From Hyphomicrobiales bacterium (GTDB lineage: Bacteria > Pseudomonadota > Alphaproteobacteria > Rhizobiales > OSC116): a DNA stretch of 64,000 nucleotides. Of the stretch, positions 4,797 to 63,400 are shown one piece after another (position 1 is the first letter of the stretch; each line of letters starts with the position of its first letter). The stretch covers positions 354,134 through 418,133 of the forward strand of contig JAOPTR010000016.1 in NCBI GenBank assembly GCA_051531935.1, in the 5' to 3' direction. A model generated the notes under the pieces. That model had not been told where the DNA came from. It made no database searches and saw only the letters and a program-made list of their open reading frames with translations. The translations under genes and the position numbers were made by a program.

Positions 4797-6255
4797 TGTC
4801 GCCCCTCATATTCTTGGAATTTCTGCGTTTTTCGCTTAAAGCAAGCGGATAGACTTTTGCGGGGTTTAGCAACCAATCTGGGTCAAAACAATCCTTCACA
4901 AGCATTTGTGCTTCTAAATCTACATCCGTATATTGAACCGTCATTAAATCGCGTTTTTCTATGCCAACTCCGTGCTCACCCGTTAAGCAGCCGCCCACTT
5001 CGACACATAGGCGCAAAATGTCAGCGCCAAAGTTTTCGGCACGTTCTAAATCGCCTTCTTGGTTGGCATTATAGAGGATAAGTGGGTGCATATTTCCATC
5101 ACCTGCGTGGAAAACATTACCCACTTGCAAGCCATGTTTTTCGGATAACTCACCAATGCCTTTTAATACATCTGCCAAGCGGCTCACGGGCACTGTGCCA
5201 TCTAAACACATATAGTCATTAATTTGCCCAACCGCGCCAAAGGCCGATTTTCGGCCTTTCCAAATCATTGCAGATTCTTCTTCACTATGGCTTTGTTTGA
5301 TAGCAGCAGGGTTTAATTTATTGGCAATTTCAGTAATTTTATCGAGCTGCTCGTTGATTTCTTGTTCACTACCTTCAACCTCAACAATCAGCAAAGCTTC
5401 GACATCGGGGTATCCTGCGCCCGAAAATTCGCCAGCCACTTTAATGATAAGCCGATCCATATATTCGATCGCGACAGGCAAAATACCCGATTTTATAATA
5501 TCTGCTACGCATTGGCCTGCAACAGCAGGTTCATCAAAACCAATCAATACAGGCCGTGCGCCTTCTGGCTTTGGTAATATGCGTAATGTCGCTTCGGTCA
5601 CGATGCCTAATTGGCCTTCCGAGCCACAAATGACGCCCAATAAATCATATCCCGCAGCATCCAAATGCGAACCGCCAATTTCGACAATCTCGCCATCGGC
5701 CATAACCATTGTTACGCCCATCAGGTTATTGGTTGTCACGCCATATTTTAAACAATGAGCGCCACCACTATTCATGGCAATATTACCTGCTATGGCGCAG
5801 GCAAGTTGGCTAGATGGGTCTGGCGCATAGAAAAAATCTTGATCCTCAACTGCACCTGTGACTGAAAGATTTGTTACGCCTGTTTCAACTTTAATAAACC
5901 GATTAGGAATGTCGATTTCTAAATGTTTATTCAGCCTTGCGGTGCCAAGAATTATGCTATCGGCGGTTGGCAATGCTCCGCCTGCGAGCGAGGTACCAGA
6001 ACCGCGCGGCACAACTGGCACTCCAAGTTTATGGCAGGTTTTCATAATGGCTGAAACTTCTTGCGTATTGCTAGGCAGTGTAACGGCCAAAGGCGTGCAG
6101 CGATAGGCCGACAGCCCATCACATTCGTAAGCAATGGTTTCGGCAACATCACTAATTACTGTATTTTGTGGTAATGCAGCTTCTAAAGCTGCCACAATTT
6201 CTTGTCGTCGATTTAGAATTGCAAGATCTGGATCTGGCATTGCGATTGTTGACAT
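4789..6255 (-). CDS. glcD: Glycolate oxidase subunit GlcD (FAD-linked oxidase)
   Basis: 'PRGSGTSLAGGALP' FAD motif and C-terminal 'GCLTGEHGVGIEK'. First gene of the glcDEF operon. Confidence 0.9.
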   Translation of the reverse strand: MSTIAMPDPDLAILNRRQEIVAALEAALPQNTVISDVAETIAYECDGLSAYRCTPLAVTLPSNTQEVSAIMKTCHKLGVPVVPRGSGTSLAGGALPTADSIILGTARLNKHLEIDIPNRFIKVETGVTNLSVTGAVEDQDFFYAPDPSSQLACAIAGNIAMNSGGAHCLKYGVTTNNLMGVTMVMADGEIVEIGGSHLDAAGYDLLGVICGSEGQLGIVTEATLRILPKPEGARPVLIGFDEPAVAGQCVADIIKSGILPVAIEYMDRLIIKVAGEFSGAGYPDVEALLIVEVEGSEQEINEQLDKITEIANKLNPAAIKQSHSEEESAMIWKGRKSAFGAVGQINDYMCLDGTVPVSRLADVLKGIGELSEKHGLQVGNVFHAGDGNMHPLILYNANQEGDLERAENFGADILRLCVEVGGCLTGEHGVGIEKRDLMTVQYTDVDLEAQMLVKDCFDPDWLLNPAKVYPLALSEKRRNSKNMRGDNA

Positions 6256-6517
6256 TTTGACCCTCTATACCCAAATTTTGAACCCAATTCAAAGATTGAA
6301 GCTTATATTCGTTCGACACCTGTAGCAATGAATATTTTCTCAACCCATTCATTTAACGGCACAATATAACCGAGAACAACCAGATTATCATGCATTATAA
6401 AGATGGCCATTGACGCCCAAATTAAATGGATAAAATTGAGTGACTGGGCCGCAAGTTCGATTTAGCGGCAACCTATCCGATCAAACCCATTATTAATATA
6501 TCAATTTTTAAAATATA

Positions 6518-6545
6518 TTGACATCTTGCCTATCTCTCTTATCTT
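6518..6545 (+). promoter_or_regulatory. Candidate sigma70-type promoter for maeB
   Basis: TTGACA (6518-6523), 16-nt spacer, TATCTT (6540-6545), about 100 nt upstream of the maeB ATG. Confidence 0.3.
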
Positions 6546-6576
6546 GAAGCTCTTATTTTCTAAATTTAAAACTAAT

Positions 6577-6609
6577 TCATTTGCAAATATATTTAATATT
6601 TACAAATGA
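6577..6609. promoter_or_regulatory. 13-bp inverted repeat (possible operator or 5'-UTR hairpin) upstream of maeB
   Basis: TCATTTGCAAATA (6577-6589), 7-nt spacer, TATTTACAAATGA (6597-6609). The arms are 12/13 complementary. It sits between the candidate promoter and the ATG at 6645. Confidence 0.45.
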
Positions 6610-6644
6610 AAACATAATCTTATACATGATTGGGCAAGTATATT

Positions 6645-8936
6645 ATGACTGACGATTCTAACGAGAAAAAAGCGCTCGACCAAGCGGCGTTGCATTTTCA
6701 TCAATATCCAAAACCAGGTAAATTGGAGATTACAGCCACCAAACCATTGGGCAACCAACGCGATTTGGCATTGGCATATTCACCTGGTGTGGCAGCACCG
6801 TGTTTGGAAATTGAGAAAGACCCCCTAAAAGCTTCGGACTATACGTCACGTGGTAATTTGGTTGCCGTAATTTCTAACGGAACAGCTGTTTTGGGCTTGG
6901 GTGCCATTGGTGCGCTGGCTTCAAAACCAGTGATGGAAGGAAAAGCGGTTTTATTCAAAAAATTTGCAGGCATAGATGTTTTTGACATTGAAGTTGATGA
7001 ATTAGACCCTGATAAATTCATTGACACAGTCGCCTCATTAGAACCAACTTTTGGCGGAATTAATTTAGAAGATATCAAAGCCCCTGAATGCTTTTATATT
7101 GAAGAAGAATTACGCAAACGGATGAAAATTCCTGTTTTTCATGATGACCAGCATGGTACGGCTATCATTGTGGGCGCTGCGGTTATTAATGCTTTACATC
7201 TTTCTAATAAGAAAATTGAAGATGTGCGCATTGTGGCTTCGGGCGCGGGCGCAGCGGCATTGGCTTGTCTTAATTTACTTGTATCTTTGGGCGCAAAAAA
7301 AGAAAATATTTTAGTTTGCGATAGTAAAGGCGTTATCTACCAAGGCCGAAACTCCAACTTGGATAAATGGAAAGGCGCTTATGAGCGCGATACAGATTTA
7401 CGCACGCTAGAAGATTGCATGCCTGGTGCCGATATTTTCTTAGGCCTCAGCGCGGCGGGTATTATGAAACCGCACATGTTGGAAAAAATGGCAAAAAATC
7501 CTTTAATCTTGGCTCTCTCCAACCCAACACCCGAAATTATGCCCGATTTAGCCCGCGAAGTGCGCCCAGATGCGATGATTTGCACAGGCAGAAGTGACTT
7601 CACGAACCAAGTGAATAATGTGCTGTGTTTCCCATTCCTATTCCGCGGTGCATTGGATGTAGTGGCGAGTGCGATCAACGAAGAAATGAAAATGGCGGCC
7701 GTGAATGCCATTGCTGCATTGGCACGCGAACCAATTTTAGATGATACGACCACCTCGGTAAGCGGTAACATACCTACATTTGGTCCAGATTATTTAATCC
7801 CTAGCCCATTTGACCCACGCTTAATTTTACACATTGCCCCTGCTGTTGCTCTGGCGGCTGAGCAAACAGGAGTGGCTTTGCGTCCTATCGAAGATATGGA
7901 TGTATATATGAGCACATTGGAGCGTTTTGTATTCCGCTCTGGCATGGTGATGAAGCCAATTATTGAACGTGCTAAAGCCGACCCAAAACGAGTTATTTTT
8001 GCCGATGGTGAGGATGAGCGTGTATTGCGTGCTGCCCAAGTATTGCTTGAAGAAGGTAGCGCCATCCCTATGCTTATTGGCCGTCCATCGGTTATTGAAG
8101 CGCGGCTTAAGCGTTTTGGCCTCAACCTAAAGCTTGGCACTGATATCGAGGTGATTAACCCCGAAGATGACCCGCGTTATCACCAATATGTTGAGCGCTT
8201 CCACTCGTTGGTTATTCGCAAGGGCGTAACACCTGACGCTGCACGCACAATTGTGCGTACAAACACCACTGTAATTGGTGCTTTGGCTGTTGATTGCGGC
8301 GATGCAGATGCGCTTATTTGCGGGTTACAAGGTCGTTATATCAAGCATATACGTGACATTAAATCTATCATCGGGTTGGCCGAAAATGCGCCTGATTACT
8401 CTGCATTGTCGCTTTTATTAATTGCCAATAAAGAGCCGATGTTCCTTGCTGATACATATGTAACGGACGAACCAACTTGCGACGAGATTGTTGCCATGGC
8501 GAGCGAAGCTGCCGAACATTTTAAGAATTTTGGCATCGAGCCTAAAACTGCAATGCTGTCTTATTCTAACTTTGGCTCGCGCACCAGTAAATCGACCGAA
8601 AAAATGAACCGCGCATATCATAAATTAAGAGCTAAATTTCCAGATATGATGTTGGAAGGTGAAATGCAGGGCGATGTTGCCTTAAGTGAAATATACCGCC
8701 AAAAATTAATACCCAATTCTTCACTTAAGGGATCAGCAAATCTATTGCTATTTCCTAATCTTGATGCTTCTAACATTGCGCTTACACTGCTTAAGGAAGC
8801 TACAAATGCCTTGCATGTTGGCCCTATTTTAATGGGCACAGCAAAACCTGCGCATGTGATAACACCAAGTGTGACCACAAGGGGCTTAGTGAATATTGCA
8901 TCTATCGCGGTAACGGAAGTGCAGCAAAAAGCTTGA
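6645..8936 (+). CDS. maeB: NADP-dependent malic enzyme (malic enzyme + PTA-like C-terminal domain)
   Basis: About 760 aa. N-terminal malic-enzyme motifs ('[10 protein letters not shown]', '[15 protein letters not shown]', '[11 protein letters not shown]', 'GAGAAA') plus a phosphate-acetyltransferase-like C-terminal half. The ATG at 6645 is preferred over the TTG at 6630. Confidence 0.9.
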
Positions 8937-29853: not shown

Positions 29854-29930
<77 letters not shown>

Positions 29931-30025: not shown

Positions 30026-31063
30026 TTATTTATGTTTTGTTCTTTTTAAAGCCTCCAAAGTCCTGACCATATGGCGTTTATTTTCCGCTCCTCTACTATA
30101 TACCCGCCCCATTTCCTCCGAAACGTCACCTAATGAGATAGCCACCTCTGAATGACTAAACCCTGCTTCTTTGAGCTTTGCGCCAATAGTGTGCCTTATT
30201 CCATGGAAAGTTAATTCTGGCTCGATTTTACCTTCATTCAGCATCTTAGATTTGAACGTGGCAAATGAGGATTTGAAGCCTGACTCTGTCCATGGCGTGC
30301 CACGAGAGTTACAGCATAAAAACAAAGTGCCATTCTCAGGAGCTGCATCAAGCACCAATCGCAATTCATCATTAATCGGGCATTCCACTTTGAAACCTGT
30401 TTTATTTGTTCTTTTTGTTAAATAGCCATCCTTTATAGCATTTTTATTCAGTGCAAGAATATCCCCTATTCTGAGACCTGTATTGATGGATATTGAAATA
30501 GGTAACCTCAAATGGATTGGAGCAGTTAACATAGCCTCAACTTCACCCTCCGACCAACGTCGGTTGGCGTCTGGCAGACTTTTATCTCGACTGATTCGCT
30601 CAACGCCTTTTACTGGGTTTGTTCTAGCCAAACCATATTGAACACCCCAAGAAAAAACTGCTGAAAGAGCAGAAAGCACATAGTTTGCATAATGAGGGTA
30701 ATGGGTCGATTCTGCCTTATCTCTAAGCTTTCTAACAAATACCGTATCTATGTTGGCAACTAACATTTGGCTAATTGGCTGTAAATAATTATGATATTTT
30801 AAATAATCTGTACGTGTTCTGACTGCGAGTTTCTTAAACTTTGGTGATTTCTTGTATTCCGTTATTAAGTGGCCGAGAGTACCTACACTGCTTGTCGGTA
30901 ATGTCTTCGCTTTCCAATGTTCTTCTGCTTTAGCAAACTCAACATAAAACGCAGCCGTGCCAAATTCAGCCATAATGCGCTTATTGCTTGGCCGAAAATA
31001 GCAGTAATCAAGACCGCCTTTGGTGTATCGTTTTAAATATTTTAGCTTTTGTTTTTTGGACAT
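30026..31063 (-). CDS. int: Tyrosine-recombinase integrase
   Basis: 345 aa with catalytic-domain signatures 'GLRIGDIL' (Arg), 'HGIRHT' (HxxR) and 'GRVYSRG' (Tyr). Adjacent to a tRNA gene. Confidence 0.9.
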   Translation of the reverse strand: MSKKQKLKYLKRYTKGGLDYCYFRPSNKRIMAEFGTAAFYVEFAKAEEHWKAKTLPTSSVGTLGHLITEYKKSPKFKKLAVRTRTDYLKYHNYLQPISQMLVANIDTVFVRKLRDKAESTHYPHYANYVLSALSAVFSWGVQYGLARTNPVKGVERISRDKSLPDANRRWSEGEVEAMLTAPIHLRLPISISINTGLRIGDILALNKNAIKDGYLTKRTNKTGFKVECPINDELRLVLDAAPENGTLFLCCNSRGTPWTESGFKSSFATFKSKMLNEGKIEPELTFHGIRHTIGAKLKEAGFSHSEVAISLGDVSEEMGRVYSRGAENKRHMVRTLEALKRTKHK

Positions 31064-39621: not shown

Positions 39622-40296
39622 TTAAAAACCACCAGCAATAGCGTTCACAACTTTTGCTACGACTTTTACCTCTGTCCCTTTATTCTCTTGGTCAGGGTAT
39701 ATGGTTGTAAATTTTGAGTCATGGCTTTCTGGCACAAGGGCACGACGACCACTAACCTCTGATAAACGCTTGATAGTTGTTTCCACAAGTTGCCCACCGT
39801 CCTTTAGCCGTTCCACCACTACTATATCGCCAATCTTCGGCTCCATGCCATTAAATTCAACACACACAGCATGATAGCCATCTGGGATGCGCTTATTCAT
39901 GCTGTCGCCGATAACTTTGAGTAAATAGTGCTTATCTGGGGCGTAGTCACCAACTAGTGGCACGTCAATATGAGGCAAGTCGGCAATGTGAATTTGATTT
40001 TCATCCACGACTAAAAAAGCCCCTGCCTGAACCGAGCCAAGCACTGGAAGACTAGCAAAGCCTTTGATTGGGATTGCGCCGGTTGGCAGTGGAGATGTGT
40101 CGGGGTCGCTGATTAGATCAGCAGGACTGCAATCTAGAACTTTAGATATGCGTTCCATCCAATCTTGAGAAAGTTTTCTCTCGCCCTTTTCTAATCGAAA
40201 AATTTGAGGCGCAGACGTTCCCACAAGTTCAGCTAGATGCTTAGCTGTCCATTTTTTCTTTTTTCTAAACTCTTCAATTCTGTTCATACTTAACAT
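39622..40296 (-). CDS. cI-type prophage repressor (XRE HTH + S24 LexA-like autopeptidase)
   Basis: N-terminal HTH 'WTAKHLAELVGTSAPQIFRLEKGER'. C-terminal S24 motifs 'GSVQAGAF' (Ala-Gly site), 'GDSM' (Ser) and 'TIKRL' (Lys). Confidence 0.9.
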   Translation of the reverse strand: MLSMNRIEEFRKKKKWTAKHLAELVGTSAPQIFRLEKGERKLSQDWMERISKVLDCSPADLISDPDTSPLPTGAIPIKGFASLPVLGSVQAGAFLVVDENQIHIADLPHIDVPLVGDYAPDKHYLLKVIGDSMNKRIPDGYHAVCVEFNGMEPKIGDIVVVERLKDGGQLVETTIKRLSEVSGRRALVPESHDSKFTTIYPDQENKGTEVKVVAKVVNAIAGGF

Positions 40297-54633: not shown

Positions 54634-54654
54634 TCCCTGTGAAATCAACTTATG

Positions 54655-54678
54655 GGCGGTCTTCGGGCTGCCTTTTTT
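54655..54678 (+). terminator. Intrinsic terminator/attenuator after the capsid genes
   Basis: GGCGGTC-TTCG-GGCTGCC hairpin (7 bp including two G-T, UUCG tetraloop) followed by T6. Confidence 0.6.
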
Positions 54679-54693
54679 AATGGAGAATGTAGA

Positions 54694-58430: not shown

Positions 58431-60248
58431 ATGAGCAATAAGAACAATTTCATAAACCAGTTCATGCCATTTGCACAAGAACAAGGACAGCGCCTAGGTT
58501 TAGACCCACGCTTAATTTTGGCTCAAAGTGCTATCGAAACAGGTTGGGGTAAAAAAGCTCCTGACAACAACTATTTTGGTATTAAATCGCACGGCCAAAA
58601 AGGCGGTCAAACATTTGGAACTCATGAGTTCATCAATGGCAAGCGGGTCAATATATCTGATAGTTTTCGGGGGTATGGCTCTGCAAAAGATAGTTTTGCG
58701 GGTTATGGTGACTTTTTGACCAAAAACAAACGATACCAACGCATGTTAGGCTCAAAAGGGCTTGATGCTCAATTGTCCGCCCTTGGCGCTTCTGGTTATG
58801 CCACCGACCCCAATTATGCAGCTAAAGTTGGCTCCATTGCGCGAAACATGCCGCAAGTCGCAGGATTTTCTCCATCACAATCACATGAAACCAACACCGT
58901 GCCGCCGGCAATGCAGGAAGGACAGAATATGCAACAAACAATGTCACAGCCACAACGAAACCCGATGCAGGGGATTATTGATGCGCTCCAAGGCAACAAA
59001 AGCGGTGAAGCCCTGCCCGACCCGAATTATACGAGCAAACTTGCCGACCAACTCATGAACGGTGCGACAGCCACACCGGTTGCAGGAAATTTTGATGGTA
59101 TTGGCCGCTTAGCCATGATGTTAAGTGGTGGCATGAAGCGTGGGCAGTATGAGGATGATTTGAAGCGACAAAAGATTGAAAAATCCGCCCTTGCCGATGC
59201 CGTAATGGGCAAGAAGCAAGCATATGTAAATGCCAATGGTGGAGAACATGCTCAAGGATTAGCAAATGGTGGTTTTATTGATGAGGCTTTTGCCTACACG
59301 AACGCCAACAATACACCCAAAATGCTACAACAACGCGAGCAAACACAATATGACCGTGGCCGTGATGGTATTCAAGATGGTAGAAATGATGCCGCTGACG
59401 CGTTGGCGCAAGACAAATTCACCGAAACGCAAAGCCAAAATGTAATTGGGAATGAGCGGAACACCAACATAGATGCACTTAGTCGGGAGAAGTTTACGCA
59501 CAAGCAACAGCAAGACGCTATTCCAGAACCGCGCACAACTTCAAAAGCCGGCGATGGATATTTGTATTATGATGATGATAAAACTCGAGCATTCCCAGAT
59601 GTTGTGAAGCCGCCTTCTAAATCACTCGTGACTGTAAATAATGCAAGTGAAAGTGCTTTTAACAAGGAAAGTGGTAAAAATTATGCTCAGGAAGATGCTG
59701 ATTACAGGTCTTTTGCTAAAAAAGCTCGTGGGTTGAATGCCAAGTTAAATACACTTGAGGAAACCTTGTCTAATCCAAATTTCATCACAGGAGTTAGCCA
59801 AGGTGCAGGCGGGCAAGCGCTAAATCAACTTAAGGCTTTGGCCTCAACAATTGTTCCAGGGGTAAAATTTGATGGCGTTGCAGACGCCGATGTAGCAAGA
59901 ACCATTTCACGCGAACTAGCCTTATCGTTTAAAGACCAGATGCCCGGCCCCATGTCTGACGCTGACCGAAATTTCTTAAACAGCATGGCAGCGGGTGAGG
60001 TAAATACACCAGAAGCCAACGCCAAGCTTATTGAAATGTACAGAGCTAGAAACAAAATATCTATAGATATGGATAGATTAGCGGGTTCATATGTTCGTGA
60101 ACACGGCCAATTAGACCGTGGTTTTGATGAGGTTTCGAATAAGTATTACACTGACAATGGCATTAGCTTATATGGCGACATGCCGAATACTGGCGATACT
60201 CGAAAAAACCTACAGTTGGTTGATGGAATTGAAATTTGGGAAGATTAA
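58431..60248 (+). CDS. Internal virion protein with N-terminal glucosaminidase/FlgJ-like peptidoglycan hydrolase domain
   Basis: 'LILAQSAIETGWGKKAPDNNYFGIKSH...GYATDPNYAAKV' is the mannosyl-glycoprotein endo-beta-N-acetylglucosaminidase-type motif. It is followed by about 450 aa of low-complexity/helical sequence. Confidence 0.7.
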   Translation: MSNKNNFINQFMPFAQEQGQRLGLDPRLILAQSAIETGWGKKAPDNNYFGIKSHGQKGGQTFGTHEFINGKRVNISDSFRGYGSAKDSFAGYGDFLTKNKRYQRMLGSKGLDAQLSALGASGYATDPNYAAKVGSIARNMPQVAGFSPSQSHETNTVPPAMQEGQNMQQTMSQPQRNPMQGIIDALQGNKSGEALPDPNYTSKLADQLMNGATATPVAGNFDGIGRLAMMLSGGMKRGQYEDDLKRQKIEKSALADAVMGKKQAYVNANGGEHAQGLANGGFIDEAFAYTNANNTPKMLQQREQTQYDRGRDGIQDGRNDAADALAQDKFTETQSQNVIGNERNTNIDALSREKFTHKQQQDAIPEPRTTSKAGDGYLYYDDDKTRAFPDVVKPPSKSLVTVNNASESAFNKESGKNYAQEDADYRSFAKKARGLNAKLNTLEETLSNPNFITGVSQGAGGQALNQLKALASTIVPGVKFDGVADADVARTISRELALSFKDQMPGPMSDADRNFLNSMAAGEVNTPEANAKLIEMYRARNKISIDMDRLAGSYVREHGQLDRGFDEVSNKYYTDNGISLYGDMPNTGDTRKNLQLVDGIEIWED

Positions 60249-60412
60249 TCAGCGAAAGGTGCGACTATATAGGTGAGAATACCTAGGATGAAACTAGGAA
60301 AAAAGGCTATTATTAAGAACCCAGATTGGAAATCTTCACCTGGCCCAATTATCCAACTGGCCGCCCAAAGGAGCGCGAGTAACCATAGTGCTTTGAAGGT
60401 TCTGTTTAGCAT
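60245..60412 (-). CDS. Possible small 2-TM membrane protein (antisense moron; may be spurious)
   Basis: 55 aa 'MLNRTFKALWLLALLWAASWIIG...FLIIAFFPSFILGILTYIV'. No clear SD, and it lies downstream of a minus-strand terminator. Confidence 0.3.
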   Translation of the reverse strand: MLNRTFKALWLLALLWAASWIIGPGEDFQSGFLIIAFFPSFILGILTYIVAPFAD

Positions 60413-60460
60413 GGAGTATATATAAGGGGTATTGGTGAGGAATTCAACCTTAGAATAACA

Positions 60461-60481
60461 AAGCCCCGCAGAAGCGGGGCT
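60461..60481 (-). terminator. Minus-strand intrinsic terminator downstream of the PemK-like gene
   Basis: Perfect GC-rich 7-bp stem GCCCCGC-TTCT-GCGGGGC on the minus strand, followed by TTTGTTATTCT. Confidence 0.65.
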
Positions 60482-60652
60482 CGAACAGTAATGTTTATTC
60501 AAGACTATCGGTCAACTTGTTATCGTTAGTTTGATAATCTGCCTAGTAATCTAGGTCTTAAGCCAGACGAACTGGATACAAGGCTAATATAGGTATTACA
60601 TCATTTATTTGCAACTTATTTTAAATTCTAATTGTAATTTATTACCGCTCGG

Positions 60653-61042
60653 TTAATCAATAAGCCCTAAACCATAACGCATAGCAAGCATCACCCCATC
60701 CAAATCTTCTGTTGATAGTTGTGGCGTTACGTATCGCCTTCGTCCAACTTTAATTGCGTCCAACCGCTTCATGCTAACCGTTGTAACCATATCAGCCTTT
60801 GCCCAGCACGTAAGCTCATCGTCTTCCTCTGGATGGTAATTAATAGTGAGTCTATAAACATAATCAACATCATGTAGTGGAGCCGTTGTACTGAGAGGTA
60901 CAATTGTCGCAAGCCCGTTGCGGTGAGGCAATCTCGGGGCAACAATTACCACGGGTCTTTTTTTAACCATTTCGGGTTCGGAGAATCCTTTAAAGTCACA
61001 ATTATAAATTTGACCTTTTCGTGGTGGGTATCGCAACGCCAT
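60653..61042 (-). CDS. PemK/MazF-superfamily toxin-like protein (YifN-type), no visible antitoxin
   Basis: 129 aa. 'RKGQIYNCDFKGFSEPEMVKKRPVVIVAP....GLATIVPLST' matches the PemK/MazF N-terminal SH3-like barrel signature. On the opposite strand to the structural genes. Confidence 0.7.
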   Translation of the reverse strand: MALRYPPRKGQIYNCDFKGFSEPEMVKKRPVVIVAPRLPHRNGLATIVPLSTTAPLHDVDYVYRLTINYHPEEDDELTCWAKADMVTTVSMKRLDAIKVGRRRYVTPQLSTEDLDGVMLAMRYGLGLID

Positions 61043-61311
61043 AAACTTCTAACCAAGTTGTTAAGTAAGGCCGCAACGTTACCAAGCAACTCTATGAACA
61101 CGCAAGTAAAAACTCCGCCGAGGCGCACAAAATATTTTTTTTGGAATTATCAACATGCACGAGCCGCGTGTTTTTATAGATTGTCAAAAAAAATCACTTG
61201 TATAAAAACAATAACTTGACCTTCTACCAAAAGATGCCTTCGAGTTAAAAGTAAACAAATGCAGAACACAAGCCGCCTCACAGCGACTTTTTTAATGAAC
61301 ATCACACACTC

Positions 61312-61335
61312 AAGGAGGCTTCGGCCTCCTTTTTT
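61312..61335 (+). terminator. Strong + strand intrinsic terminator upstream of the 523-aa gene
   Basis: AAGGAGGC-TTCG-GCCTCCTT hairpin (UUCG tetraloop) followed by a T-run. Lies 13 nt before the GGAG SD of the gene at 61349. Confidence 0.7.
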
Positions 61336-61348
61336 AATGGAGAAATGA

Positions 61349-62920
61349 ATGCCGATATTTAATTTAAAAGACGCAAACGGCAAAATTTTTAAGCTTGAAG
61401 CGCCAGATCAACAATCTGCTATAGCTGCATTCAAGAAATTCACGACACAACAAGCCAATAACCAACCCTCAATCGAAGGCCATGTCCAACAAGGCATGAG
61501 CGGCTTAAACGAGGGGATTGCAGCTTTACCTAATATGCTAATGGATGGCTCAAACTGGATTGCCGAAAAAACAGGTCTATATGATTTGTTAGGTGATGGC
61601 ACACGACCAGAGCCGATGAGCCAAAAAGTCAACCGTAGTATGCAGGATATTGGATTTACGAAGCCTCCATCACAACACGCAAGCGAGCAATTTGTTCGAC
61701 GTATTGGGCAAGAAGTTGGTGGCTCAGTTATCCCTGGCGCCGGCATGATTGGTGCGGGTGCAAAAGTCGGTGGTAAAGCCTTAAATACTGGCGGCAATGC
61801 TTTGTCTCGTGGCTTGACCGATATGTCGAAATCTTCCTTTGATGATCTTGGGAAGTTCATAGGTACTGAGACAGCAACTTCTGTCGGCTCAGGTGTTGGT
61901 GCAGCTACTGCTCAACAAGTTGCGCCTGACAGTCAATTAGCTGAATTTGTGGGACAAGTCTTGGGCGGTGGTTCGGTGGTGGGAGCGCAAACCGCGATAA
62001 CAAAAAAACAGGCTACGCGGCAATACCGAAAAGACGCACCAAGCACGGACGATTTAAAGGATATGACCAGTGAGGCTTATAACAAAATTGATGACCTTGA
62101 TGTGGTGTATAATAAACAGTCAACACAGCGATTAGCAGATGATATGGACGCAGCATTACAAGAGGAATTAATTGACAAGGACATAACGCCCAAAGCAACC
62201 AAAGTTAATGAGAAAATTAAGGACATTGGAGGCAGTGAGCGCAAATTCATGGAACTTGAAAATATCCGAAAATTAGCAAGACGAGCCGTTGCCAATAGTG
62301 CGGATGGTGGTGAGCAACATTTGGGTAAAGTAATATTAGAGATATTGGACGACTTTCAAGCTACAGCAACTGCTAAAGACGTTTCAAAAGGTAACGCTGA
62401 AGTAGCATCATCAACAATTAATGATGCTCGAAAATTAAACACCCGATACAATAAAGCCAAAAACTACGACCGCATGATGGAAAAGGCGGAAAATGCTAAA
62501 AGCGGGTTCGACACAGGCATGGATAGCCAAGTTCGAAGCATGTTGAATAGTGATAAACGTAGCCGCTTCAACAGCCCCGAAGAAACTAAGCAATACAAAA
62601 AAATCTTAGACGGAACGGTTGGGCAAAAAATATTGAAAAACATTGGGGCATTTGCTCCAAACGCCGGCGTTTTTCGAGGCATTGCTCATGGTGCTATGTT
62701 TGCTTCTAACCCCGTTCTTGGAGTTCCACTTGCGCTCGGAACATCAGGAGCAAGAGCGGGAGCGTCGAAGCTCGCAACTAATAAAGTACAATTGCTCGGA
62801 GACATGTTGAGATCAGGCAAACCTTTGCCAAAATCAAAGTTTACCAACTCACAAATAGCAGCTTTAATTGCACATTTAACCAGCAATACAGCCCAACCCC
62901 AAAATCATGAACGAAACTAA
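61349..62920 (+). CDS. Putative internal virion/ejection protein (Gly/Ala-rich)
   Basis: 523 aa with several Gly/Ala/Val-rich hydrophobic stretches ('GGSVIPGAGMIGAGAKVGG', 'GSGVGAATAQQ'). Position is typical of podovirus ejection proteins. Confidence 0.45.
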   Translation: MPIFNLKDANGKIFKLEAPDQQSAIAAFKKFTTQQANNQPSIEGHVQQGMSGLNEGIAALPNMLMDGSNWIAEKTGLYDLLGDGTRPEPMSQKVNRSMQDIGFTKPPSQHASEQFVRRIGQEVGGSVIPGAGMIGAGAKVGGKALNTGGNALSRGLTDMSKSSFDDLGKFIGTETATSVGSGVGAATAQQVAPDSQLAEFVGQVLGGGSVVGAQTAITKKQATRQYRKDAPSTDDLKDMTSEAYNKIDDLDVVYNKQSTQRLADDMDAALQEELIDKDITPKATKVNEKIKDIGGSERKFMELENIRKLARRAVANSADGGEQHLGKVILEILDDFQATATAKDVSKGNAEVASSTINDARKLNTRYNKAKNYDRMMEKAENAKSGFDTGMDSQVRSMLNSDKRSRFNSPEETKQYKKILDGTVGQKILKNIGAFAPNAGVFRGIAHGAMFASNPVLGVPLALGTSGARAGASKLATNKVQLLGDMLRSGKPLPKSKFTNSQIAALIAHLTSNTAQPQNHERN

Positions 62921-62941: not shown

Positions 62942-63400
62942 TTACAACAACGCCGTCTTGCTATTTTTCATGAGGTCTTCGAATTTTAATAGGTTTTCAT
63001 CATCTACTTCTGAATGAAGGTCTACACGGCAAATCAGACCCTTTTTTACAAATATTTGTATAAACCCTTTCAACTTAACTCCGCTATTTGGAGGGGGCAA
63101 TAATGATAGAAAATCAAAATGAAAGTGGGTATCGTCACCACTTTTTATTTCTCCCAATTCGGTAGTTGTTGAGGAGTTGAAAAAGTGCATTCGAATTACG
63201 AACTGATCAAAATTAACATCCTCGCCATTGGCCTCGCTGTAAACAAAGTTTGTCGAAATTAGATTGACCAATTCGCCGCCACTATTGTTTAGAAAACCAT
63301 TTACAAAATATTGAACTAACTTTGAATTATCTGACATAGACCCTGTCTCATATTTTTTACCGTTGTTTCGCACATTACCAGTTTCGCGATTGTTAATCAA
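62942..63400 (-). CDS. Antisense-oriented hypothetical protein (moron; possibly NTF2/SnoaL-like fold)
   Basis: ORF with a TTG at 63400, or more probably the ATG at 63337 (131 aa, 'MSDNSKLVQYFVNGF...'). Lies between the ejection and tail-fibre genes. Fold guess is weak. Confidence 0.45.
   Translation of the reverse strand: MINNRETGNVRNNGKKYETGSMSDNSKLVQYFVNGFLNNSGGELVNLISTNFVYSEANGEDVNFDQFVIRMHFFNSSTTTELGEIKSGDDTHFHFDFLSLLPPPNSGVKLKGFIQIFVKKGLICRVDLHSEVDDENLLKFEDLMKNSKTALL

Follow-up and report, generated by a model that had tools for sequence, protein, structure and literature searches.

Closest described systems

Toxin–antitoxin systems of types I, II and III and phage morons are the closest described relatives of the element analysed here, a 1.1 kb insert in a prophage of a Hyphomicrobiales bacterium, which carries a gene for a 129-aa PemK/MazF-fold protein of the YifN-like clade (which we refer to as the toxin gene, toxicity being a prediction) and, directly downstream of it, a gene for a conserved structured small RNA of ~125 nt. 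The insert lies in a 64 kb stretch of contig JAOPTR010000016.1 (positions 354,134 to 418,133), which is called the window below, positions being counted from its first letter.

With type II MazEF/PemIK (Kid-Kis) modules the locus shares a protein of the PemK_toxin family, the SH3-like barrel of MazF and a catalytic Arg and Thr/Ser, and a minority of loci of the same family possess an XRE or ribbon-helix-helix (RHH) gene directly upstream of the toxin gene. It differs from them in that no protein antitoxin is found here or at most family loci and an RNA gene follows the toxin, and in that the protein scores far below the NCBIfam MazF cutoffs and belongs to a narrow family profile of its own. 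Type III systems (ToxIN, CptIN, TenpIN) likewise combine a protein endoribonuclease, here a candidate, with a structured non-coding RNA of the pseudoknot type, are frequent on mobile elements and prophages, and place RNA and toxin in a shared transcription unit where a terminator helps to set their ratio; the fold of ToxN is Kid/MazF-like. In contrast to these systems, the toxin here is of the PemK family and not ToxN, CptN or TenpN, without a PADLOC match, and its RNA is a single molecule of ~125 nt rather than a row of tandem 34–45 nt repeats. The RNA gene is also downstream of the toxin gene (sometimes convergent with it) and has its own promoter, whereas the type III array is upstream and separated from the toxin gene by the terminator. 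A type III-like tandem repeat antitoxin was ruled out, as there are no tandem repeats in 60000-61600.

Enzymatic toxins with small-RNA antitoxins are known among type I systems (RalR/RalA, SymE/SymR), and the locus resembles these in that a prophage toxin gene has beside it a small-RNA gene that ends in a terminator and U-tail, with short complementarity to the toxin leader in some relatives; as in hok/sok, pairing between the 5' and 3' parts of a long read-through mRNA is conceivable. Unlike type I antitoxins, the RNA runs in the same direction as the toxin mRNA without overlapping it, and its structure and motifs persist despite unrelated leaders. Phage morons, finally, are matched by a unit that sits between genes adjacent in related phages and is equipped with promoter(s) and a terminator of its own, and in E. 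coli prophages the toxin-RNA pair occupies the classic moron site between antiterminator Q and the lysis genes. The present unit departs from this pattern in being oriented against the late operon and in pairing a protein gene with an RNA gene rather than consisting of a single gene.

A structured RNA gene follows the toxin gene

The first clue to the RNA was a set of recurrent peptide strings in spurious open-reading frames (ORFs) downstream of toxin genes, which led to a conserved nucleotide element. Its strict pattern, AAGAC...GGC...GAU(G/A)ACAAG, was found in 56 of 161 loci, all on the toxin strand just past the stop codon, and once in the 64 kb window, at 60516-60560 on the minus strand. 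The toxin gene and the parts of the RNA gene are arranged in the window as follows:

60653..61042, minus strand: 129-aa PemK/MazF-fold protein of the YifN-like clade, candidate endoribonuclease toxin (Pfam, PHROG, fold, catalytic residues)
60655-60653, minus strand: toxin stop codon
60586..60614, minus strand: sigma-70-like promoter, −35 TTGCAA at 60614-60609, 17-nt spacer, −10 TATATT at 60591-60586 (promoter scan)
60453..60579, minus strand: conserved structured small RNA of ~125 nt, 5' end placed from the promoter and 3' end from the terminator
60563..60575, minus strand: helix P1 (CCAG/CUGG), by fit to the consensus
60554..60560, minus strand: single-stranded UAAGACC between P1 and P2, with AAGAC invariant in 42 of 42 aligned sequences
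60543..60554, minus strand: helix P2 (CUAG-AUUA-CUAG), three of its four pairs with changes on both sides across the family
60502..60540, minus strand: helix P3, an 8-bp lower stem and a short upper stem, all eight lower-stem pairs with compensatory changes
60524-60517, minus strand: 8-nt loop of P3, GAUAACAA, invariant at the AU-ACAAG positions (family loop GAU(G/A)ACAA)
60455..60482, minus strand: intrinsic terminator, stem 60482-60461 and tail UUGUUAU at 60461-60455 (terminator scan)

The RNA promoter begins 39 nt past the toxin stop codon, and toxin mRNA that reads through the RNA gene should likewise end at the RNA terminator, because no terminator lies between the two genes. Our covariance model of the RNA, R1, matches the window at 60491-60579 (62.8 bits, e-value 2.8e-13), its only match in the 64 kb, and the minimum free energy fold of the window RNA alone reproduces the consensus helices (z −4.0). 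The third pair of P1 is A-U in the window and C-G in relatives, a compensatory change. An earlier reading of the window, made from its letters alone (the sequence-only reading), had noted a minus-strand terminator after a "solitary" toxin gene; the hairpin at 60482-60461 is indeed present, but it is not just a terminator, it is the 3' end of a conserved RNA gene, and with that gene directly downstream the toxin is not solitary.

For comparison we used 160 toxin loci, 80 from species-representative genomes (where 571 were confirmed) and 80 from viral contigs, and searched all of them with R1 on both strands (1.5 Mb). R1 matched 130 of the 160, starting at a median of 28 nt past the toxin stop codon, and almost nothing elsewhere. 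Positive loci span Alpha- and Gammaproteobacteria and include E. coli lambdoid prophages and Vibrio prophages, among them the prophage of E. coli SE11, where the RefSeq annotation between Q and the lysis genes consists of a "PemK/MazF family toxin" alone. Half of the 30 R1-negative loci (15) match a variant pattern or carry an opposite-strand copy and about a dozen more were recognised by eye, two are cut by the contig end and two are unclear. One variant class has AAGUCC and the loop GAUUGCAAUC, with a P3 and a terminator that both covary. In five or six loci (L043, L106, L110, L036, L062 and L076) the RNA gene lies on the other strand and converges with the toxin gene, and here a terminator lies between the two.

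The consensus structure was derived with RNAalifold from MAFFT alignments that were blind to structure. In the 42-sequence alignment 13 of 15 pairs showed compensatory changes, and aligning the window's closest relatives over their full length added P1 and an 11-bp terminator, with compensatory changes in 19 of 33 pairs; the window sequence fits every helix of this second alignment. Paired cells reached 91.5% vs. 74% in shuffles and double changes 135 vs. 47, with none of 500 shuffles as high, and pairing fell to 27–62% when the partners were slid by one to three columns. At a fixed distance from the RNA, 41% of loci possess an equivalent promoter (at least 9/12 match, for example TTGACA-17-CATATT or TTGCCA-17-TAGAAT), compared with 4% of shuffles. 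Such a conserved, fixed-distance promoter and the opposite-strand copies argue that the RNA is a transcription unit of its own and not a mere 3' untranslated region (UTR) of the toxin mRNA. The toxin genes themselves frequently have no room for a separate promoter. On comparative grounds, these data show the downstream element to be a conserved structured RNA gene that is near-universally linked to YifN-like proteins. No Rfam 15 family reached its gathering score with the window element or with 12 of the loci, the best sub-threshold matches being driven by the terminator.

The linkage was also examined in reverse, by fetching viral contigs with a loose RNA pattern, whose matches were mostly chance, and then seeking the toxin. 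Seven contigs were positive with the covariance model: three encoded the toxin, one was a truncated remnant and three were false positives, which sit in a coding gene resembling (by eye) the T4-type UvsX/RecA recombinase.

Two further copies deserve description. In a viral contig (L225, 3280-3530) the RNA is kept from P2 to the terminator, near-identical to the copy in locus L098, with an unrelated 265-aa membrane-protein gene in place of the 5' half of P1, the promoter and the toxin gene; this is an RNA remnant after gene replacement. At the yifN pseudogene of E. coli K-12 MG1655 (NC_000913.3) there is no R1 match. Past this pseudogene (L286, 4815-5461, minus strand), where no RNA is annotated, a perfect TTGACA-17-GATAAT promoter, CUAAGU, a hairpin and a terminator with a UUUUGCC tail are visible by eye, and they may represent the RNA in decayed or divergent form.

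The P3 loop and the RNA tail

In the window RNA the tail UUGUUAU is complementary to AUAACAA of the P3 loop. Complementarity of at least 6 nt between the loop and downstream sequence is present in 43% of loci vs. 9% of shuffles, and loop [A/G]CAA covaries with tail UUG[U/C] (A-U 26, A-C 3, G-C 8 and G-U 1), although the two loop/tail classes are two clades and these counts are not phylogenetically independent. The covariation suggests a pseudoknot between loop and tail.

The 129-aa protein

The minus-strand 129-aa protein had been assigned to the PemK/MazF superfamily from its translation, and database matches agree: it hits Pfam PF02452 (PemK_toxin) over residues 9-101 with an e-value of 6.4e-13 (49.3 bits vs. 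a gathering cutoff of 23.1) and phrog_15698 with an e-value of 1e-28, and its N-terminus agrees with the family consensus. Structure prediction, proposed earlier as a comparison with MazF, gave a MazF fold with the catalytic residues retained. The AlphaFold 2 model (31-sequence alignment) had a predicted local distance difference test score of 93.6, and its top 50 Foldseek matches in the PDB were all MazF/MoxT/YdcE (e-values down to 3e-8, TM-scores of 0.7–0.84), the best being MazF from S. aureus, M. tuberculosis, B. subtilis and E. coli. In a HMMER alignment to E. coli MazF, R29 of the query falls on R29 and S51 on T52, which we take to be the catalytic pair of the E. coli enzyme. Neither R29 nor S51 varies among 31 family members, and in a set of 79 both are conserved to at least 95%; K27, P49, W80, K82, D84 and R93 are likewise invariant in the family. 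The suggestion that this might be a non-toxic YifN-type protein gains no support from the catalytic residues, which are invariant, and the predicted fold is that of MazF. The protein is a candidate endoribonuclease toxin.

Against the NCBIfam MazF equivalogs the protein reaches 15 bits, where the cutoffs are 120–150. The YifN-like family profile is narrow, with 1,388 representatives at e-value ≤ 0.001 among 1.84 billion, and the family comprises 862 clusters at 50% identity (e-value ≤ 1e-10); it is a distinct clade. The protein is labelled "YifN, PemK superfamily" by JGI, and an identical 129-aa protein is recorded from a metagenome-assembled genome labelled Hyphomicrobiales. We found no functional literature on YifN, and the PADLOC defence models gave no match to the toxin at e-value ≤ 0.1.

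Insertion into the virion-gene cluster

The insert separates two plus-strand virion genes, whose ends at 60248 and 61349 are as first read from the ORFs:

58431..60248, plus strand: left flanking virion gene, 605 aa, with an N-terminal glucosaminidase / cell-wall hydrolase (domain matches, synteny)
61349..62920, plus strand: right flanking virion gene, 523 aa, phrog_21712 (homologues lie directly 3' of the hydrolase gene in related phages)

Three related phages share the gene order acetyltransferase, structural protein, cell-wall hydrolase and homologue of the 523-aa protein, and in all three, Octadecabacter virus DB2, Sulfitobacter phage NYA-2014a and Brucella phage Pr, the hydrolase gene touches or overlaps the gene for the 523-aa homologue. 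Homologous phages thus lack the 1.1 kb, a comparison that had been proposed from the window sequence, and since the flanking genes abut in these three phages the 1.1 kb is a true insertion. With its break in synteny, own promoter and own terminator, all read from sequence comparison and scans, the insert is a phage moron, placed antisense within the virion-gene cluster.

Protein partners and gene neighbourhoods

No XRE helix-turn-helix (HTH) or RHH remnant was detected in any frame of 60200-61420, and a profile of the XRE proteins associated with the family gave no match there in six frames. The only weak match to the XRE profile in the window is the cI-like repressor of the prophage, 21 kb away. 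In the source assembly, gene calling yielded only the toxin gene in the gap. One small ORF remains beyond the terminator:

60245..60412, minus strand: 55-aa ORF with two transmembrane segments (85 aa from an upstream TTG), 3' of the terminator and uncalled in the source assembly, probably no gene

The sequence-only reading had called this ORF doubtful, and the 55/85-aa product has zero homologues among 5.8 billion proteins. A protein antitoxin inside the insert was rejected, as the small ORFs are without support and the antitoxin profile finds nothing; that there is no credible antitoxin ORF on either side of the toxin gene, as was first reported, holds. Comparative genomics, by which a small conserved antitoxin ORF might have come to light, gave the same picture: the protein neighbours of the toxin relatives are heterogeneous, and the 160 loci have no general protein partner. 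A 76–92-aa XRE-HTH gene lies directly upstream of the toxin gene in ~11 loci (~7%) and an RHH gene in one. Genes for cI-like repressors, BRO-family antirepressors, integrases and antiterminator Q adjoin the toxin gene in subsets of loci only, Q being upstream of it in enterobacterial lambdoid prophages, and many copies follow housekeeping-like genes or transposases.

One such arrangement is found in the 13 kb Vinavirales prophages of Vibrio cyclitrophicus, the type to which Vibrio phage 10N.237.312.C11_PE001 (locus L001, PQ189288) belongs. At 5376-6646 it encodes a cI-like (S24) repressor, followed after 19 nt by the PemK-like gene and then the RNA, a covariance-model match at 6552-6646 (e-value 5e-4). 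The order repressor, toxin, RNA is also seen in the viral contigs L151, L154 and L155.

A candidate toxin and RNA antidote module

We lean slightly towards reading the insert as a prophage moron with a module of a toxin and its RNA antidote or controller, and hold this with a little better than even confidence. The RNA would be made in excess from its near-consensus promoter and would expose AAGAC and the loop GAU(G/A)ACAA, which contains ACA; both elements are single-stranded and invariant. The toxin could bind AAGAC and the loop as a pseudo-substrate, which would amount to a type III-like neutralisation by RNA, and the loop-to-3'-tail pseudoknot could shape or protect the RNA. Upon shut-off of transcription (e.g. 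by an infecting phage) or loss of the element, the RNA would decay and the RNase be freed, so that the biological role would presumably be defence or addiction. We infer direct binding between RNA and protein from the near-obligate linkage of their genes and because the invariant elements are single-stranded, while the stems and the mRNA leaders vary freely. An RNA antitoxin was among the explanations offered by the sequence-only reading; its kind is the one we favour, its proposed location in 61043-61348 was wrong, the conserved RNA being downstream of the toxin gene.

A wider claim, which we put forward tentatively and expect could well fail, is that the pair represents an undescribed class of toxin–antitoxin system, in which a MazF/PemK RNase is neutralised by a single-copy, pseudoknotted, downstream RNA of ~125 nt with an ACA-loop pseudo-substrate, in Proteobacteria and their prophages, possibly as a shutoff-sensing anti-phage or addiction module. 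If true, a MazF-family toxin under the control of its own structured RNA would link type II with type III biology, and an unannotated RNA partner would perhaps explain how "orphan" PemK/MazF toxins of the YifN-like clade are tolerated in many genomes. The annotation of hundreds of "type II toxin" genes would change, and E. coli, Vibrio and alphaproteobacterial prophages would gain a candidate defence/addiction module. For RNA catalogues this would be a new family, whose entry R1 could seed, and the invariant loop and AAGAC predict the RNA recognition elements of the enzyme.

Several observations count against an RNA antidote that binds the toxin. Phylogenetic relatedness inflates part of the covariation and of the contingency counts, and no protein residues specific to RNA class, which would be a sign of direct recognition, were found. 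The loci with XRE or RHH genes retain an intact RNA; as XRE/RHH gene, toxin and RNA occur together there, the RNA is not a mere substitute for a protein antitoxin, and in these loci the XRE or RHH protein could be the antitoxin and the RNA have a different role. We found no description of the RNA in the literature, in a search of incomplete coverage, and a prior description is possible. Lastly, the enterobacterial toxin 5' UTR carries UUGUCAUC, a perfect 7–8-nt complement of the RNA loop, which fits control by base pairing rather than protein binding.

Such control, in which the P3 loop would pair with the 5' UTR or ribosome-binding region of the toxin mRNA and block translation or trigger decay without any binding of the protein, is in our view unlikely, and it is the best surviving of the rivals. 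In the enterobacterial loci (L091, L096, L098, L101, L120, L128, L114 and L130) the toxin 5' UTR opens with (U)UGUCAUC, the perfect complement of the loop GAUGACAA, which is positioned 25 nt before the toxin start and just past a −10-like TAAAAT/TATAAT; this motif is also the RNA's own 3' tail. Among translation-initiation regions, 19% contain a perfect complement of at least 6 nt vs. 6% of shuffles, and the window leader has ACUUG-G-UUA at −17 to −9, a bulged 5+3-nt match to the loop. Set against this, no complement is conserved in the leaders of the type A loci, those of the nearest relatives of the window toxin, where the toxin gene often abuts the upstream gene and lacks a 5' UTR. Pairing with the leader would also make it hard to explain that loop and AAGAC are invariant across Alpha- and Gammaproteobacteria despite unrelated leaders.

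A second alternative, less probable still, is that there is no toxin–antitoxin pair, and that the PemK-fold protein, harmless at native levels, is a processing or binding partner of an effector small RNA acting on host or phage targets. The near-universal linkage of RNA and protein would suit this, toxicity being a prediction, as would the typical small-RNA build with own promoter, terminator and U-tail, and one locus has an RNA remnant but no protein gene. Many copies also sit in core chromosomal contexts, beside (by eye) genes for DNA polymerase III beta, GyrB, peptidyl-tRNA hydrolase and ribosomal protein S16. Against it stand the strictly kept catalytic Arg and Ser of MazF and the frequent occurrence of the family in prophages, beside integrases and at moron sites, a typical toxin or defence context. 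A subset of its loci also has classical antitoxin-type XRE/RHH genes upstream.

The region upstream of the toxin gene

The opposite end of the insert, which the sequence-only reading had regarded as a possible regulatory region, comprises the following:

61043..61311, no strand assigned: AT-rich region upstream of the toxin gene, expected site of the toxin promoter and 5' UTR, with weak promoter candidates only
61169-61178 / 61201-61210, no strand assigned: TGTTTTTATA / TATAAAAACA, a perfect inverted repeat whose 10-nt arms are 22 nt apart (repeat listing)
61312..61348, plus strand (61312-61351 in the comparison with its twin): phage-backbone cassette of a UUCG hairpin, UUUUUUAAUGGAG (ribosome-binding site) and the start codon of the 523-aa gene (twin cassette)

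Within 61043-61311 there is no ORF with homologues, no antitoxin remnant and no conservation in relatives, and the upstream contexts of the closest relatives are mutually unrelated, often without room for a 5' UTR. The inverted repeat may be an operator. As a candidate we considered a plus-strand small RNA in 61215-61340, which was rejected, its fold being no better than shuffles (z −0.9).

The plus-strand-only UUCG hairpin with a T-run is present at 61312-61335 as first described, but a role tied to the toxin is not borne out. A twin, GGGCGGTC-TTCG-GGCTGCC-TTTTTTAATGGAGAATG..ATGCC, is located at 54654-54690 on the plus strand before another late gene, with no toxin there; both copies comprise a GC-rich UUCG hairpin, UUUUUUAAUGGAGAA.G and ATGCC, and the 54654 copy comes after a small gene past the putative capsid genes. 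With a near-verbatim twin before another late gene, the cassette is not a toxin-tied device, and it may be an intercistronic attenuator or stabiliser combined with a ribosome-binding site. The two terminators said to bracket a single cassette are thus the end of the RNA gene on the left and a repeated late-operon cassette on the right, and control of the toxin by late read-through transcription is weakened as an explanation, the same hairpin cassette occurring where there is no toxin.

The original picture, of a solitary toxin governed by plus-strand read-through or by a 61043-61348 RNA ending at 61335, with the downstream element as only a 3' UTR or terminator, appears very improbable to us: late plus-strand transcription must, from the geometry, cross the toxin gene antisense, and the hairpin with its T-run is strong, but that hairpin is duplicated before a toxin-free late gene, 61043-61311 is neither conserved nor unusually structured, and the downstream element has its own promoter, three covarying helices beyond the terminator, invariant motifs and opposite-strand copies.

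An exact 11-nt direct repeat, CTTTTTTAATG, occurs at 61287-61297 and 61329-61339 on the plus strand, 42 nt apart, the first copy following a weak hairpin at 61272-61286. This repeat may be the scar of a recombination event at the insert's right edge.

Prophage setting

The window consists of bacterial chromosome followed by the prophage, which is integrated at a tRNA-Arg gene (29854-29930). The ORF beside this gene (30026-31063) is integrase-like by its position. A cI-like repressor (HTH_3 and Peptidase_S24) is encoded at 39622-40296, and the block of plus-strand virion genes extends from ~48.7 kb to the end of the window. Distant relatives of the virion proteins are encoded by alphaproteobacterial podoviruses, namely Brucella phages Pr/Tb, Sulfitobacter phage NYA-2014a and Octadecabacter virus DB2. 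When the whole region was searched as DNA against the phage collection, no near relatives were detected, and a search of viral contigs with the 523-aa protein gave no match.

Homologues of the 523-aa protein are labelled "major head protein" by RefSeq in Brucella phage Pr and Sulfitobacter phage NYA-2014a. In Octadecabacter virus DB2 a different gene is annotated as the major capsid protein and the homologue as hypothetical, and the "major head protein" label (phrog_21712) may be an annotation error that has been propagated. Directly after the 523-aa gene lies a second antisense ORF (62942-63400, minus strand, 152 aa from TTG, 131 aa in the source assembly), with no match in Pfam, NCBIfam, PHROG or PADLOC. 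At the equivalent position Sulfitobacter phage NYA-2014a encodes a hypothetical gene on the opposite strand, SUFP_017, and the position of 62942-63400 may be another moron site.

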